Shown: piece after piece, positions 12,401 through 18,929 of the stretch | Layout: every line of letters starts with the position of its first letter | Position numbering within the stretch: the stretch's first letter is position 1 | Assembly: GCA_030650195.1 (NCBI GenBank) | Contig: JAUSEP010000086.1 | Coordinates: 1 to 45,809, forward strand | Direction of reading: 5' to 3' | From: Candidatus Berkelbacteria bacterium | Lineage (GTDB): Bacteria; Patescibacteriota; UBA1384; 2-12-FULL-50-11 | DNA: 45,809 bases | The notes under the pieces: model-generated | The model's input: only the letters and a program-made list of their open reading frames with translations | The model's database searches: none | What the model was told of the DNA's origin: nothing | Position numbers and translations under genes: made by a program

Positions 12401-13642
12401 GTGGAAAAAGAAAATTTACTACCGTTGTCGGGGTTTCGAGATAACTTAGGCCCAACTAAAAGTTGGGTGATTAGTGAACTACAAAAAACTTTTCAGGAGT
12501 ACGGCTACCAGGCACTAGAGACCCCGGCAATCGAACGCCAAGAGATTCTTCTTGGTAAATTAGGAGAAGAAGGGCAAAAACAACTTTATCTTTTTGAAGA
12601 TAACGGGAAGCGGAAAGTTGGTTTACGGTACGACCTGACAGTACCCTTAGCTCGTTTTGTTGCCGGCAACCTTGGCCAGTTAGCCCTCCCCTTCAAGCGC
12701 TACGAGATCGGATCGAGCTGGAGAGCGGAACGACCACAAAAAGGTCGCTACCGTCAATTTACGCAGGCTGACGTAGATATTATTGGTGCTCCCGAACCAT
12801 CTAGCGAACTGGAGTTGTTCTCTGTCGTTAGTTCTGCGGCCGAAAGATTGGGCCTGAAACTTACGTGCCTGATAAATGACCGCCGAGTAGTTAGCGAGAT
12901 TTTCGATTCTCTCAAGATTCAAGATTCTGAGAGATCTAAGCTCCTCCAACTTTTTGATAAGAAAGATAAGTTACCAGAAGCGGAGTTTACAAGCCAATAC
13001 CAAAAATTCTCTTTAACCGATGTTCAGTCACGCCAACTCTCTGCTTACTTTTTGGCTGAAGGTGAGGAAGCACTGGCATCTACGGAACACCTAATAGGTA
13101 AGTCAGAGTCTCTCACAACAGTTAAGGCCATGCTTGCTTGGGCAAAGCGTCGTGGTGTCAAAGCCGAATTTGCTCCATCGATGGTACGAGGATTAGATTA
13201 CTACACCGGTACAATTTTTGAATTCAAAGCAGATAACTACGATGGCGGAACTGTTGTTGGAGGTGGTCGGTACGATTCCCTAATTGAGGGATTAACGGGA
13301 CAAAAGGTACCGGCAGTAGGCCTGTCTTTTGGTGTTGATCGTTTGAGCGATTTACTCTCAGGCGAAGCTCAAACAGACACTCTTTTTATTGTCCGCTTGC
13401 CGGAAACAACCGTTGAGCTGAACAATTGGGTACGGGAGCTACGGAAAGAGGGTCGCAAAGTTGAGGTTTACTTAGATGAGACCGTTGAGTTAGGTAAACA
13501 GATTAAATACGCAGATAAACGAGGTTACAAAACAATTATTATTCCGCTTGAAGAAGCCTGGAAAAAAGGTCAAGTAGAAATTAAAAATCTTGAAACAGGC
13601 AAGCAGGAAGCGGTTAAGAGAGACGAAATAGCAAATGGCTAA
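12401..13642 (+). CDS. hisS: Histidine--tRNA ligase
   Basis: LRYDLTVPLAR, RAERPQKGRYRQFTQ, RGLDYYTG, GGGRYD. Confidence 0.97.
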   Translation: MEKENLLPLSGFRDNLGPTKSWVISELQKTFQEYGYQALETPAIERQEILLGKLGEEGQKQLYLFEDNGKRKVGLRYDLTVPLARFVAGNLGQLALPFKRYEIGSSWRAERPQKGRYRQFTQADVDIIGAPEPSSELELFSVVSSAAERLGLKLTCLINDRRVVSEIFDSLKIQDSERSKLLQLFDKKDKLPEAEFTSQYQKFSLTDVQSRQLSAYFLAEGEEALASTEHLIGKSESLTTVKAMLAWAKRRGVKAEFAPSMVRGLDYYTGTIFEFKADNYDGGTVVGGGRYDSLIEGLTGQKVPAVGLSFGVDRLSDLLSGEAQTDTLFIVRLPETTVELNNWVRELRKEGRKVEVYLDETVELGKQIKYADKRGYKTIIIPLEEAWKKGQVEIKNLETGKQEAVKRDEIANG

Positions 13643-16472
13643 GCCGGATTTCTCGGGCGACCACAAGTCGCTTTTTGAAGTTGAAGAAAAAGTTTTAAAA
13701 TTTTGGGAAGAGCAAAAGATTTTCCAGAAATCCCTAGATAAGAACCCTAAGGAAAATATTTTTTCTTTTTACGATGGGCCTCCTTTTATAACAGGCATTC
13801 CGCATTACGGAACTCTTCTACCTTCAATAGCAAAAGATATTATTCCTCGTTACCAAACAATGAAGGGTAAATATGTTCGGCGTACCTGGGGATGGGACAC
13901 TCATGGGCTACCTGCTGAGAACCAGGTTGAGAAACAGCTAGGCTTAAAAGTTAAAAAAGATATTGAAGAGTTAGGAGTAGATAAGTTTATTGAAGCCTGT
14001 AGAGCTTATGTTGGTGAGGTGTCTGATGCCTGGAAATGGTATATCGATCACATCGGTCGTTGGGCAGATATGGATAATGCGTACCGAACAGATTCCTTGG
14101 AATTCATGGAAACAGTTATTTGGGTTTTCAAACAACTTCACAACAAGGGTTTGATATATCGTGGTCGTCGAACTTCTCTTTACTGTCCGCGTTGTGCTAC
14201 GGCCTTAAGTAAGTTTGAAGTAACGATGGATGATGATTCGTACCGGGACGTCGAAGACCCAGCCGTAACGATAGCCTTCAAGATGAATTCCGAGGATACG
14301 TATTTATTGGCCTGGACGACTACACCTTGGACGCTACCAGCCAACCTTGGTTTAGCAGTGGATGAAAAAGCCGAATACGTAAAAGTAACTGATGGTAAAA
14401 AGCAATACATTTTAGCTCACGAAGCCCTGCCTCGTTACAGTGATTGCGACTTTGAAATACTGGAAACATTTAAAGGCAAAAAACTAATTGGTCAGAAATA
14501 CGAACCGCTTTACAGTTTTCTACCAACAAATCCCGAAAAAGATTTTCAAGTGTATCCAGCAGATTTTGTTTCTATGGACGAGGGAACGGGAATTGTCCAT
14601 ATAGCCCCAGGATTTGGAGAGGATGATACTAAACTAGGTGAAAAAGTAGGGTTATCTTTGCATGAAACAGTTGATGAAGCCGGACATTTTATTCCTGAAA
14701 TTAAACCATGGGCCGGACAGTATTACAAAAAAGCAAATCCATCAATTTCGGAAGACCTTACTAAACGAGGATTGCTCTTTAAGGAGTCTACCGTTACTCA
14801 CTCCTACCCACACTGCTACCGTTGTTCGACGCCACTCATATATAAAGCCCAAGTTTCTTGGTACATGTCGATCGAACCGCTACGGAAGGAGCTACTTGAT
14901 AGTAACAAGAAGATTAACTGGATTCCTAAACATTTTGGTGACAAGAGATTTGCCCACAACATTACCAATGCTCCTGATTGGTCCATAAGCCGAACACGCT
15001 ACTGGGGAACACCGTTACCCGTCTGGGAGACCGAAGATGGTGAAGTTTTTGTACCAGAGTCAGTCGCAGAACTAGAAAAACTTAGTGGCCAAAAGATTAC
15101 AGATTTGCATCGTCCTAAGATAGACGAGGTTGTACTAACGCTATCTAACGGTAAGAAAGCACATCGGGTGAAGGAAGTTTTGGATTGTTGGTTTGAGTCT
15201 GGTTCTATGCCGTACGGGCAAGATCATTATCCTTTTGAAAACAAAGAAGAGTTCGAAACACATTTTCCAACAGATTTTATTATTGAATATACCGGACAGC
15301 TCCGAGGTTGGTTCTACTATCTCCATGTGCTATCTAATGCTCTTAAGGGAAGTATCGCTTTTAAAAATGTTGCTGTGAACGGAGTGCTGATGGGTAACGA
15401 TGGCCGAAAGATGAGTAAATCTTACGGTAATTACCCAGACCCACGTGGAACAATTGAAAAATATGGTGCTGAATCTTTACGACTCTACTTTATGAGCTCA
15501 AAGATTATGGTCGGAGAAGATCTGGCTATTAGTGAAGAAGATATCCGAGAGCAATCTCGTCTCCTTAACGTCTTCCACAACTCTTTGAAATACTTTTTAA
15601 CCTATGCAGGAGTTGCCGCTTGGCAAGCTGGTAAAGAAAGCAAAGCCGAAAAAACCGTTCTTGATCTCTGGATTGAAGCTCGACTTGAGGAGGCGATTAA
15701 GGAATATGTTGAAGGCTTAGACAATTTTGACTTCCAAGCCTCAACCAAAGCCGTTAGACCGTTTATTGAAGATCTCTCTACCTGGTACATCCGCCGTTCT
15801 CGAGACCGGTTTGTCCAGGGCGATGAGGCGGCTTTAGCTACACTTGGTAGCGTCTTACTTCGTTCAGCAATAGCTTTTGCCCCAACCCTACCTTTTACCA
15901 GCGAATATTTTTACCAGATGCTAGGAGGCCAAAAAGAATCTGTGCACTTAGAAAGTTACCCAGCATTTGACGAGGCAGTCCTAAAACACGAACAAGAAAC
16001 AATTACAGTGATGCGAACGGTTCGTGAAGTGGCTTCTATTGCTCATATGCAACGGGCCGAGGCTAAGATGCCGTTACGCCAACCACTTCCGAGCTTAACC
16101 GTTGCGGGATCATCAGAACTTGCGAAGCGAGAAGACCTTATCGAAGTTTTACGAGACGAAGTGAATGTTGAGCGAGTTGAGTTTGGTAAAGAAACAAATA
16201 TAGATACAAAACTGACTCCGGAACTCCAGATGGAAGGGCGTTACCGTGAACTAGCACGTAAACTTCAGGAAGCTCGTAAGAAAGGTGGTTTAAAAGTTGG
16301 GGAAATGGCTAGCTTCCACTACTTTACCCGTGACGATGACCTACGAGAGCTTATCGAAAAGCATTCATTGGAGCTTTCTAAAGCCGCTACACTTCGTTCA
16401 ATTGAACCGATCGCCGATCAATCAGGTTTAACCAAACTTGATGGCGAGGAACTGGCCTACAAATTTAAGTAA
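13635..16472 (+). CDS. ileS: Isoleucine--tRNA ligase (type 2)
   Basis: FYDGPPF, HYGT, GWDTHGLP, WTTTPWTL, SRTRYWGTP, KMSKS, STWYIRRSRDR. Confidence 0.96.
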   Translation: MAKPDFSGDHKSLFEVEEKVLKFWEEQKIFQKSLDKNPKENIFSFYDGPPFITGIPHYGTLLPSIAKDIIPRYQTMKGKYVRRTWGWDTHGLPAENQVEKQLGLKVKKDIEELGVDKFIEACRAYVGEVSDAWKWYIDHIGRWADMDNAYRTDSLEFMETVIWVFKQLHNKGLIYRGRRTSLYCPRCATALSKFEVTMDDDSYRDVEDPAVTIAFKMNSEDTYLLAWTTTPWTLPANLGLAVDEKAEYVKVTDGKKQYILAHEALPRYSDCDFEILETFKGKKLIGQKYEPLYSFLPTNPEKDFQVYPADFVSMDEGTGIVHIAPGFGEDDTKLGEKVGLSLHETVDEAGHFIPEIKPWAGQYYKKANPSISEDLTKRGLLFKESTVTHSYPHCYRCSTPLIYKAQVSWYMSIEPLRKELLDSNKKINWIPKHFGDKRFAHNITNAPDWSISRTRYWGTPLPVWETEDGEVFVPESVAELEKLSGQKITDLHRPKIDEVVLTLSNGKKAHRVKEVLDCWFESGSMPYGQDHYPFENKEEFETHFPTDFIIEYTGQLRGWFYYLHVLSNALKGSIAFKNVAVNGVLMGNDGRKMSKSYGNYPDPRGTIEKYGAESLRLYFMSSKIMVGEDLAISEEDIREQSRLLNVFHNSLKYFLTYAGVAAWQAGKESKAEKTVLDLWIEARLEEAIKEYVEGLDNFDFQASTKAVRPFIEDLSTWYIRRSRDRFVQGDEAALATLGSVLLRSAIAFAPTLPFTSEYFYQMLGGQKESVHLESYPAFDEAVLKHEQETITVMRTVREVASIAHMQRAEAKMPLRQPLPSLTVAGSSELAKREDLIEVLRDEVNVERVEFGKETNIDTKLTPELQMEGRYRELARKLQEARKKGGLKVGEMASFHYFTRDDDLRELIEKHSLELSKAATLRSIEPIADQSGLTKLDGEELAYKFK

Positions 16473-16509
16473 GTTGACAACAGTAGAGCAGGTTAGGAAT
16501 GATAACGGT

Positions 16510-16632
16510 ATCTAGAGGTGACCGTCCTCTGGAAATCTAAAAGGAGGTGGAATCTCCTAAGCAAAATCTGGTAGTTTCGAGTTTGGACGTACAACGGGGT
16601 GTCACCATGATGGTGCGCCCCGACTAATTTTT
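16510..16632 (+). ncRNA. Candidate small structured RNA (~120 nt); boundaries approximate
   Basis: TTGACA at 16474; hairpin TCTAGAGG/CCTCTGGA; AGGAGGT-gga-ATCTCCT hairpin; closing GC-rich hairpin CGGGGTG..CGCCCCG then T tract; no start codon at SD distance. Confidence 0.5.
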
Positions 16633-16977
16633 AGGGCTTGACAGCACATTTTCCAGAAGAGTAGCATTACTTCGTAAGCGAGTGTGCGCACACGCTAGCT
16701 TCGGACATTCTACAGACCTTTGGGTCACAGGCTGCTTGAACGGGAGGGTAGCACATGAAAATGTGCGGCGACCGTATGAGTCATTCTGCCAAAAGAGGCC
16801 CTGTCAGGTGTGGGTGCTGATCAGATAGGGCTGGCTCGCAGGCACCAACACTGAAAACCAATGGCGTTAGCTCCACTGAGCTTTGCCATCAACGGTAGTA
16901 GGTGAACGAACGGGGTTTTACTCCCGTTGTTCCGGCAAGACCGGAAGAAAAGCGGTTTGGGCCGATCTCCTAAGCAA
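16552..16977 (+). repeat. Exact 13-nt direct repeat ATCTCCTAAGCAA, one copy in each candidate RNA (16552-16564 and 16965-16977)
   Basis: Read directly from the sequence. Confidence 0.9.
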
Positions 16978-17080
16978 TGCCTTAAGAAAGCACTGCTTGG
17001 CAAGCATCGTCCCAACCAGAAATCATTTCCATACTTTCAAGTTTCCGTTCTCCGGGGGCCGCGCGTAGCGCGGCCTTTCC
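16674..17080 (+). ncRNA. Candidate large structured ncRNA (~400 nt), unassigned; boundaries approximate
   Basis: TTGACA(16638)-18-TAGCAT(16662); many hairpins and nested stems; terminator at 17054-17080; no convincing ORF. Confidence 0.6.
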
Positions 17081-17124
17081 CTTATGCATAAAAAAGCCGC
17101 CCGCTTCAGAATCCGAAGCGGGCG
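17054..17124. terminator. Back-to-back convergent terminators
   Basis: Plus: GGCCGCGC-GTA-GCGCGGCC-TTT. Minus: CGCCCGCTTC/GAAGCGGGCG next to A6. Confidence 0.8.
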
Positions 17125-17133
17125 TCACGAGTT

Positions 17134-18879
17134 TCAGGGTTTTGAATGGGAGGGGGCGGGTCCCATCAAGCCAAGGCCGGTGCCATTATGCGAGCGGCCC
17201 CCGCGAGTATCTGGCGGACTCGGCCTATAAGTGTCGTAGTTACAAACGACGTTGCAACTTGCCTGGATCAGTCGGCCATCTTGCATACCGATCACAGACA
17301 GTACGGTTGTTTGGGCTCGTTGATTGACCGGAGCGTTCCAGATATATCCTCGGTCGTGACTGGCCCAGTTGAAGAAGCCCGACGAGGGCGAGAAGGTCTC
17401 GCCTGGTCCTAGCGTTACGTTCCATTCGGCATAACGTGACGGGAAGAACTCACCCGTCGGGGTGTAGGGGTCGTACCACTGCACACCAAGCCAACTACTG
17501 TCCATACCAAAGTTGTCGAACGTCAGCACCTTGAGAAGCATCGAACTGCTCGTGTTGTTGCGCACATAGGGCACGTAGTACCAGCCGTAAGAGTCGGCTT
17601 CAACGGTACTTGGTATCGTCCAGATTGATAGTTCGTTGTCGAACGTCAATCTAATTGAGTTGAACATCGAGTCGATCAGACTGGTGTCAGACTTGATGTT
17701 GAAATGTGTTGCGCTTGGCAGGTCGTAGGTATAAACCGGACCGCCAGTCAGCTCCCCAAGCTGTATGCCGTTGGCCAAGGCGCTGTCGCGCTCAACGACC
17801 CAGTCCTTACCGCCGGCAAAGAGGTGGTAGGTCACCACTCCTCGTTGGGTTGAATGGTAAGAATTGAGTTCGGTTAGAAACGCGCTGCCTGGTCGCAACT
17901 CCTCGATAGCCGGGTCGTCCACGTCCGCCGTAAAAGGCGAACAACTAAATGTACCGTTGAGCCAGAGCTTGCTGATATTGAAGGCGAAATCCGCCGTATC
18001 GGCTAGGTGGCTGCCTTTATTCGGACCAACAATCGAAACAAGGTTCCGTACTGAGGCCGTTGCGCCGAGTCGCTCTAGAGCGTAACGAGCCGTTAGTTCC
18101 CCCTGTGAGTAACCAACGAATGTCACGTTTTTGAGTTTGTCTTTGTACGGGGCTAACAACGCCGCCAGCTGGATACCAGCTTCTTTTGCTCCTTGTTTCC
18201 AAGGAGAAGCAAACGAGAAGACGTTAGAACCGCCGAGTATTACCCTTGCTCGACTACCAATGGTTTTCATCGATTGGTAGTTGTCCAAGACGCCGTGAAA
18301 GCACAGGATTGTGCCGGGATCGGCAAAGTTGGTAGTACCCTCCAGCTTTTTGATGGCGTACTCGGTGTCGGACAGGTTGTCCTTAACCAAGCCGATCACC
18401 CACTCCCAAACCTTTCCGCCTCCGCGGTCAGCAGAACGGCCTAAGGCAGCTGGTAGAGTGAAGCTGACTTTCCCGTTAGACTTAACTCGATCGAGCGGTA
18501 GCCAGACATCACCAGATTTGATTCCGGCAATGTATTCTTTACCGTCGTCGATAACCGAGATAGTAATGTCCTTCTGGGGAGTCTCACTAGAAGTTAGTTT
18601 TAAAGCTGGCTTGCCAAGAACGAAGTTCTGCTCCGGAGGTAGCTGGGGTGCTTGGGCAGTTTGGTAGAGTGCAAGGCTCGAGCCGTTGGGAAAAGTCCCT
18701 GCGGCCTCGAACTTAATACCGATCTCCCCATATGTCTTGTCAAAACCTTCGTTAGCTGCGACTGAGAAGGGGTCCGTTCGTGGCTGAAATCCTCCGCCGT
18801 TACCGGTCCCACCGCCACCACAACCAACAAGAGTGAGAGCTAGAACACCGAAAAGTGTCCAAAGTTGGAATCTCATCAT
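17134..18879 (-). CDS. Lipoprotein with alpha/beta-hydrolase (lipase/esterase) domain
   Basis: Lipobox LVGC and Gly linker; CFHGVLD oxyanion segment; GYSQG nucleophile elbow; GGKDWVV and ATH as candidate Asp/His; GGAGG SD. Confidence 0.8.
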   Translation of the reverse strand: MMRFQLWTLFGVLALTLVGCGGGGTGNGGGFQPRTDPFSVAANEGFDKTYGEIGIKFEAAGTFPNGSSLALYQTAQAPQLPPEQNFVLGKPALKLTSSETPQKDITISVIDDGKEYIAGIKSGDVWLPLDRVKSNGKVSFTLPAALGRSADRGGGKVWEWVIGLVKDNLSDTEYAIKKLEGTTNFADPGTILCFHGVLDNYQSMKTIGSRARVILGGSNVFSFASPWKQGAKEAGIQLAALLAPYKDKLKNVTFVGYSQGELTARYALERLGATASVRNLVSIVGPNKGSHLADTADFAFNISKLWLNGTFSCSPFTADVDDPAIEELRPGSAFLTELNSYHSTQRGVVTYHLFAGGKDWVVERDSALANGIQLGELTGGPVYTYDLPSATHFNIKSDTSLIDSMFNSIRLTFDNELSIWTIPSTVEADSYGWYYVPYVRNNTSSSMLLKVLTFDNFGMDSSWLGVQWYDPYTPTGEFFPSRYAEWNVTLGPGETFSPSSGFFNWASHDRGYIWNAPVNQRAQTTVLSVIGMQDGRLIQASCNVVCNYDTYRPSPPDTRGGRSHNGTGLGLMGPAPSHSKP

Positions 18880-18929
18880 ACCCTCCATGTGAAAGAACCA
18901 ATCCTTCACGTACTACGATTACTGTAAAC

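Follow-up and report, generated by a model that had tools for sequence, protein, structure and literature searches.

What occupies the gene-free gap of 661 nt (16473-17133) that separates ileS from a convergent lipoprotein gene in a Candidatus Berkelbacteria genome? The gap lies in the window, by which we mean the whole 45,809-nt stretch of DNA analysed here (contig JAUSEP010000086.1 of assembly GCA_030650195.1, our contig C94), and the window belongs to a genome of 787,523 bp that is assembled in 100 contigs and is 93% complete. The genome under study is called G000 below, and G001 to G005 denote five other species of the same genus. The gap holds two tandem RNA genes, a ~125-nt RNA first and a ~400-nt RNA second, and this pair is previously undescribed. 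The larger RNA has an anatomy of distinct helices, matches no Rfam family, sits in a syntenic locus in G004, and keeps part of its structure there. It is an orphan, lineage-restricted, and fast-evolving structured RNA, most likely with a trans-acting regulatory role. The full proposal, in which it is a genuine noncoding RNA (ncRNA) gene, independently transcribed from the + strand as a member of the tandem pair and regulating other genes in trans, is one that we hold at even chances. The evidence for a broad new class of RNA is thin. The predicted transcripts and their signals are as follows.

16474-16503, + strand: promoter P1 of the small RNA, TTGACA-18-AATGAT, scoring 10/12 and starting 2 nt past the ileS stop codon.
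16506-16634, + strand: small RNA of ~125 nt, with a 5' hairpin, an AGGAG/CUCCU hairpin, a single-stranded AAGCAAAAUCUGG, and a terminator.
16552-16564, + strand: 13-nt motif ATCTCCTAAGCAA, copy 1, within the small RNA; an exact direct repeat of 16965-16977.
16638-16667, + strand: promoter P2 of the large RNA, TTGACA-18-TAGCAT, scoring 10/12; G004 has TTGACA-18-TATTCT at the same place.
16672-17080, + strand: large RNA of ~400 nt, its start placed from the -10 box and its end set by the terminator hairpin.
17054-17078, + strand: GC-rich terminator hairpin of the large RNA, seen in the fold; the G004 homologue is called by the terminator scan.

The large RNA had been proposed, with promoter P2 and a GC-rich terminator, by a model that saw only the letters of this DNA and their open reading frames (the sequence-only reading). 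Promoter P2 is indeed present, and it is of a kind that this organism uses: of the 71 sites of the form TTGACA-N16-19-TANNNT genome-wide, 49 fall in the 22% of the DNA outside open reading frames (ORFs) of at least 100 aa, and this enrichment identifies the form as the working promoter type. Three promoter-like sites occur at the region against 0.6 expected from shuffles. A sigma-70-type promoter at this position would start a transcript of ~400 nt near 16672-16676 that ends at the GC hairpin 17054-17078. The hairpin is real as well, although in G000 its U-run is broken (UUUCCCUU), and it was missed by our scanner because of this interruption, whereas the G004 homologue carries a T-run and is called. 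The large RNA has its own promoter and terminator on one strand, and the same signals recur in G004 and G002. The G-U pairs and the orientation of promoter and terminator point to the + strand, and the RNA folds with a z score of -3.0, none of 100 shuffled sequences being equally stable. With its own signals and a layout shared with G004, the locus behaves as the independent non-coding RNA gene that had been supposed.

The earlier anatomy was incomplete, as it missed the upstream RNA gene (16474-16634) and an ORF preceded by a Shine-Dalgarno (SD) sequence within the large RNA (16755-16820). The upstream RNA ends in a GC hairpin at 16595-16622 followed by a U-run at 16628-16632, and the hexamers and spacing of P1 are identical in G004, where the RNA has a positional homologue. 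Its fold z score is -3.05, and that of the G004 counterpart is -3.75; by BLASTN the small RNA is found in its own genome only (1 of 41). The two RNAs of G000 share the 13-nt motif, of which the second copy lies near the 3' end of the large RNA. We estimate that ~0.003 repeats of 13 nt would be expected by chance in 666 nt. The motif is anti-SD-like because its complement contains AGGAG. From this motif the G004 large RNA keeps only CUAAGCAAUGC.

The synteny with G004 is complete: ileS, P1, the small RNA, P2, the large RNA, a terminator, and the convergent gene follow one another in the same order, and the large RNA there is a full-length homologue. Downstream of ileS in G002 there is a single promoter, with an RNA of ~340 nt and a terminator behind it. 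R1, a covariance model built on the domain of the 3' hairpin, finds the G002 RNA at the expected place with 19.2 bits and an E value of 0.004. Inspection by eye of G003 and G005 shows a perfect TTGACA-18-TAGCCT or TAACCT, not called by the scanner, followed by an RNA-sized stretch with GC hairpins. Also by eye, a GAGGG motif is found in all five genus RNAs, and a CA-N-UCAU element with a C/U-rich tail is comparable in the four outside G000.

The predicted parts of the large RNA are listed from the 5' end, with their state in G004.

16671-16705, + strand: H1, the 5' hairpin in the minimum free energy (MFE) fold, poorly conserved in G004 (alignment columns 1-40 are 33% identical).
16715-16726, + strand: H2, a GACC/GGUC hairpin; in G004 it reads GCAC/GUGC, with both sides altered in 2/4 pairs.
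16733-16844, + strand: core domain closed by HJ (UGCUUG 16733-38 with CAGGCA 16839-44) and enclosing H4, H3, H5, and H6.
16740-16775, + strand: H4 (ACGG/CCGU), which encloses the internal loop GAGGGUA and H3.
16751-16766, + strand: H3, GCACAU-GAAA-AUGUGC, capped by a GNRA tetraloop.
16778-16837, + strand: H5 (GAGUCA/UGGCUC, from the fold), which encloses a small hairpin and H6 (16798-16805/16824-16831).
16812-16821, + strand: conserved loop of H6, GGGUGCUGAU (GGGUGCCGAU in G004), able to pair with AGGCACC 16840-46 to the exclusion of HJ.
16861-16946, + strand: variable middle hairpins from the fold, H7 (16861-89), H8 (16909-28), and H9 (16930-46).
16954-17017, + strand: P3, a long 3' hairpin GGUU-GGG-CGAU/AUCG-CCC-AACC that carries the conserved CUAAGCAAUGC.
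17018-17053, + strand: pyrimidine-rich tail AAAUCAU...UUCUCC, predicted to be mostly unpaired; its length and sequence vary in contig X4.

The short-range pairings that the sequence-only reading had picked out are all present in the sequence, and most of them occur in the MFE or centroid fold. The long-range helix that it had offered as a possibility, GAACGGGA (16738) with TTCCGTTC (17043), is there in the G000 sequence but lacks conservation: contig X4, which is ~90% identical, lacks 7 nt at 17044, and by eye G004 has no equivalent. The RNA is modular, consisting of 5' hairpins, a multi-helix core, variable middle hairpins, P3 with CUAAGCAAUGC, the tail, and the terminator. In the core, three conserved strands with two possible modes of pairing accompany a hairpin capped by a GNRA loop and an internal loop rich in purines (GGAGGG).

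Conservation of the structure differs from part to part. In HJ, 5/6 pairs are identical in G004 and one terminal pair is broken, and both strands are conserved blocks. All four pairs of H4 are changed on both sides (UGAU/AUCG), in a register that we chose, and H3 becomes ACACAU-GCGA-AUGUGU, with one compensatory pair and the GNRA loop kept. H6 has five identical pairs, one compensatory pair, one one-sided change, and one broken terminal pair. The three invariant strands of the core (CUGCUU, GGGUGCYGAU, and AGGCACC) allow two mutually exclusive pairings, either CUGCUU with AGGCA or the H6 loop GGUGCY with GGCACC; for the H6 loop and AGGCACC, 6/6 pairs are possible in both G000 and G004, one of them with a one-sided change. 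The middle hairpins show 35-47% identity to G004, and H8 alone has a recognisable counterpart. P3, in which copy 2 of the 13-nt motif lies (16965-77), keeps 11/11 pairs, one of them compensatory, and one P3 pair is U-A in G000, C-G in G004, G-C in G002, and U-G in contig X4. Two further ideas were dropped for want of support from the G004 sequence or from the loop sizes: that the H6 loop mimics the anticodon loop of tRNA-Ile, and that a GAAA tetraloop is matched with a CCUAAG receptor.

RNAalifold, applied to the raw MAFFT alignment of the G000 and G004 sequences, yields 70 pairs, 19 of which are changed on both sides. With columns shuffled within conservation classes, the z score is -5.06 for the full length (0/100), -4.33 for the 3' domain (0/300), and -2.36 for the 5' domain (6/300). 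The helices placed by hand (H2, HJ, H4, H3, H6, and P3) keep 37 of their 39 pairs: 27 are identical, 9 are changed on both sides, and 1 is changed on one side, while the 2 broken pairs both lie at helix ends. The 3' domain is identical at 51/70 positions (73%) against 56% at the four-fold sites of ileS (P = 0.003), and the best-conserved segment, alignment columns 321-360, reaches 88% identity. Eight differences across the RNA set the near-identical contigs X2 and X3, which come from two other sequencing runs, apart from G000; two in confident helices keep the pair and four are unpaired. The strain variant 16761 A>G in H3 keeps its pair as U-G.

A number of findings weigh against the proposal of a genuine trans-acting RNA gene. 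Over its full length the RNA is 54% identical between G000 and G004 (217/400) and the four-fold sites of ileS are 56% identical (148/264), so no constraint shows in the primary sequence taken over its whole length. Compensatory changes account for 9/39 pairs, but they come from two full-length sequences, and the H4 register chosen by us supplies 4/9 of the compensatory pairs. The searches turned up a single full-length homologue (G004) and a single homologue of the 3' domain (G002), too few for R-scape-type covariation statistics. G002 is the closest species by IleRS (89-91% identity) yet keeps only the 3' hairpin domain, the RNAs at the same site in G003 and G005 show no detectable homology, and in G001 the site is empty of any RNA, the ileS stop codon being directly followed by the shared terminator. 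The folding stability held up against shuffled sequence, but it is modest: z is -2.3 in G000 without the terminator and -0.7 in G005, and since the reverse strand folds similarly (z = -2.6), stability does not choose the strand. Among the X2/X3 strain variants, the one at 16671, which probably lies upstream of the transcribed part, disrupts a likely pair, and another breaks a pair of probability 0.13. Moreover, a GGAGG with an AUG short ORF occurs in 4/5 of the genus RNAs. Finally, when five RNA segments were compared with 737 translation-start regions, no target stood out, and the top scores were no higher than the tail of the distribution would yield.

Some of this would be expected if the gap were a functionless, fast-decaying spacer, with its signals kept for insulating or terminating convergent transcription, or the remnant of a lost gene. 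An overall identity equal to that of synonymous sites, the lack of an RNA in G001, the differing content of the site among species, and the modest folding z are all in keeping with a spacer. They sit poorly with a TTGACA that is perfect in five species although the four-fold sites are only 55-56% identical, with 9 compensatory pairs against 2 broken ones, and with a 3' domain conserved above neutral sites. In addition, no conserved ORF remnant is found, and the 661-nt gap is an outlier: in length it ranks 23rd among the 498 gaps that separate ORFs of at least 100 aa, for which the median is 117.5 nt. We consider a spacer or gene remnant unlikely.

The short ORF raises a different question, namely, whether the transcript is translated.

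16755-16820, + strand: candidate short ORF of 21 codons, with GGAGG 7 nt upstream and its AUG inside H3; the G004 counterpart has 24 codons.

The transcript might then encode a small basic peptide (of 21 codons in G000 and 24 in G004), either as a plain mRNA or as a dual-function RNA with the peptide as its main product, and the structure would be untranslated region. In both G000 and G004 the GGAGG precedes the AUG by 7 nt, SD-preceded short ORFs are also present in G005 (27 codons) and G002 (15-19 codons), and the indels between G000 and G004 within the ORF sum to 6 nt, which keeps the frame. However, the peptides of the five species are without recognisable similarity, and the changes that separate G000 from G004 number 7/5/5 at codon positions 1/2/3, the third not being enriched. 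Each of the two strain variants within the ORF replaces an amino acid (Met>Val and Gly>Ser, by eye) while keeping the base pairs; the AUG is within the hairpin H3; the best-conserved segments (88% in columns 321-360) lie outside the ORF; and by eye the GAGGG motif has no start codon after it in G002 and G003. No long ORF is present in the large RNA, also when the alternative code 25 is used. A peptide mRNA is, on this balance, rather unlikely, and we return to the RNA as a noncoding gene.

Could the large RNA belong to a known family? With Rfam 15, two tRNAs are the only matches in the window that reach gathering thresholds. A permissive scan of 16400-17200 with 4227 families and E values up to 10 gave a best score of 17.8 bits against a cut-off of 60, and ARAGORN found no tRNA or tmRNA in 16300-17300. 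The sequence-only reading had seen no hallmarks of RNase P RNA or tmRNA here, and both are encoded on other contigs: RNase P RNA (RF00010) at C73:2332-2880 with 138.2 bits, and tmRNA (RF00023) at C56:315-698 with 140.1 bits. Neither was found at the locus, in 16400-17200 and 16300-17300, respectively. The C73 match takes up 549 nt to cover model positions 13-319 and reaches the contig end, which suggests a sizeable insertion and a 3' part that may be missing from the assembly. A second match to the tmRNA model, of 136 nt and 61.7 bits, which is above the cut-off, lies at C75:8825-8960 on the - strand.

A very divergent member of a known family (signal recognition particle (SRP) RNA, 6S RNA, a T-box, or a paralogue of RNase P RNA or tmRNA) could in principle be missed, as Rfam models can be insensitive in this phylum and no SRP RNA is found anywhere in the genome. 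Yet every family stays below a third of its gathering score, RNase P RNA and tmRNA are accounted for elsewhere, and the SRP proteins are missing along with the SRP RNA. The SRP RNA models RF00169 and RF01854 match nothing in the G000 genome or the 41 relatives; the Ffh M domain was likewise not found in these genomes; and no SRP54 GTPase domain scores above 25.8 bits in the 41 relatives, nor does any of 81 phylum genomes have one at E 1e-10. In agreement with this, an earlier paper describes ffh and ffs as undetected in Parcubacteria (PMC4508563). Because SRP RNA and SRP proteins are both missing, SRP RNA is excluded as an identity for the large RNA. A T-box or riboswitch leader was rejected: the next gene (17134-18909, - strand) is convergent and there is no Rfam match, and the large RNA is not a leader because no gene follows on the same strand. 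6S RNA is a rod of ~180 nt with a large central bubble. It was rejected because RF00013 gave no match among the 4227 families at E up to 10 and the fold of the large RNA is multi-branched, not a ~180-nt rod. A divergent copy of a known RNA is accordingly a very remote prospect.

The earlier suggestion of an undescribed class survives in one respect, as no Rfam family is matched, and falters in the other, as the searches gave no homologue from beyond the genus. Among 41 relatives, BLASTN with the large RNA picked up only G004 and a 29-nt match in G027, which lies inside an ORF of 440 aa and was set aside as chance. A two-sequence nhmmer profile run over 43 loci found those of G000 and G004 only. 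The model R1 has no match in the G003 and G005 loci; in 151 genomes of the class it gave two extra weak matches (E ~1e-3), both within ORFs, and none outside the genus. In 19 genomes of the family R1 yielded nothing new, and as the whole-genome pre-filter missed even G002, the genome searches with R1 are insensitive to weak homologues. Scans of metagenomes and genomes by the IleRS C-terminus recovered only loci matching G001, G002, and G003. In viral contigs a first pattern matched once, within coding sequence of an AT-rich contig and taken as chance, and a second pattern not at all, and BLASTN against phages gave no match. The large RNA is single-copy in its own genome, and the DNA of the locus is present in groundwater and soil metagenomes. 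On present evidence a broadly conserved new RNA class is not defined, and the gene is best filed as a new orphan regulatory or structured RNA.

In the G001 assembly, the locus L019 has a run of N after ileS that is flanked by a duplicated 3' end of ileS and looks like a scaffolding gap. L045, its gap-free metagenomic counterpart, has no RNA gene at the site.

How the RNA might act is suggested by its conserved and exposed parts. The large RNA would serve in trans as a regulatory RNA, together with its small neighbour or in competition with it. The likely means are conserved single strands that are predicted to be exposed, such as the anti-SD-like AUCUCCUAAGCAA common to both RNAs, which might base-pair with mRNAs at their ribosome-binding regions or serve as the binding site of a common protein.

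The neighbouring genes bear on a more local role. The gene ileS (13635-16472, + strand; Pfam tRNA-synt_1, E 6e-129) is the last in a run of same-strand genes, and the convergent gene (17134-18909, - strand) encodes a protein of 591 aa with a lipoprotein signal (LVGC lipobox) and an alpha/beta-hydrolase domain.

17098-17124, - strand: terminator of the convergent lipoprotein gene, called by the terminator scan and outside the large RNA.

The lipoprotein shares 79% identity with its G000 homologue in G004, 55% in G005, and ~30% in G002 and G003, whereas IleRS identity is 83-91% for the same four genomes. The divergence of the RNA follows the lipoprotein gene and not ileS, the G004 RNA being alignable, those of G003 and G005 not, and that of G002 hardly recognisable. 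One metagenomic contig matches the locus only from 16954 onward, which is the same mosaic pattern. For these two reasons the RNAs and the lipoprotein gene are taken as one variable segment that probably recombines, and the locus may evolve fast as a cassette with the adjacent surface lipoprotein gene.

The same correlation could mean that the RNA is a regulator linked in cis to the lipoprotein cassette, either as an antisense or 3'-overlapping RNA formed on read-through or as a dedicated trans regulator of it. RNA divergence in step with the lipoprotein (79/55/~30%) and not with IleRS (83-91%) would fit, and so would the convergent arrangement, with the terminators of the large RNA and the lipoprotein gene 20 nt apart. 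However, each gene has a strong terminator hairpin, the lipoprotein start region ranks only 143rd to 687th of 737 for pairing with the five RNA probes, and the co-divergence may simply reflect linkage in one recombining variable segment. We regard regulation of this kind as decidedly unlikely. Similarly doubtful is a bolder scheme built on the two pairings of the core, in which the core would be a conformational switch in a new kind of trans-acting RNA, and the RNA and its sister would co-evolve with the adjacent hypervariable lipoprotein cassette and control it; the ultrasmall symbiont may rely on this cassette in its dealings with the host.

For the preferred reading, a trans-acting orphan RNA, several known systems offer a comparison. 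RNAIII of Staphylococcus is a long, multi-hairpin regulatory RNA of a Gram-positive bacterium with its own promoter, an intrinsic terminator, and a short internal ORF. The likeness is in a length of several hundred nucleotides, many independent hairpins, and C/U-rich segments able to pair with SD regions, whereas the large RNA has no sequence or Rfam similarity to it, no nearby quorum-sensing locus, no conserved peptide, and no known targets. The small RNA resembles the familiar class of trans-acting small RNAs in its 5' hairpin, second hairpin, single strand, and terminator, and the anti-SD-like 13-mer is in both RNAs; the large RNA differs from that class in being 3-4 times longer, in its multi-helix core with a GNRA loop, and in having no distinctive predicted target. 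The large structured bacterial RNAs OLE, ROOL, GOLLD, and raiA, whose functions are unknown or recently found, have dozens of covarying pairs and are conserved in many different genera. Like them, the large RNA is intergenic, multi-domain, driven by its own promoter, and kept in a small genome, but among the genomes searched it occurs in one genus, it diverges at about the synonymous rate, and it matches none of their Rfam models. RNase P RNA and tmRNA share its ~400 nt and multi-helix look, and they are set apart by being found elsewhere in the genome with no match here.

Genomes of Patescibacteria are below 1 Mb. Literature searches returned no described regulatory RNA of Patescibacteria and no paper on ncRNAs of Patescibacteria or Saccharibacteria. 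In this setting, a 0.79-Mb genome with a median gap of ~118 nt spends 661 nt on two promoter-driven RNAs beside a rapidly diversifying lipoprotein. If the RNAs are expressed, they would offer an entry point to post-transcriptional control in uncultured symbionts and an example of RNA genes that turn over at the speed of synonymous sites while local structure is kept.

Two minor observations concern the surroundings. The two proteins encoded downstream gave a weak esterase match and otherwise nothing against PADLOC and NCBIfam. In the G002 locus (L017), the stretch between ileS and the RNA promoter (~1330-1511) contains repeated AAGTCT hexamers and, after them, repeated copies of the complement AGACTT, an arrangement that could represent an inverted-repeat element or a group of binding sites.

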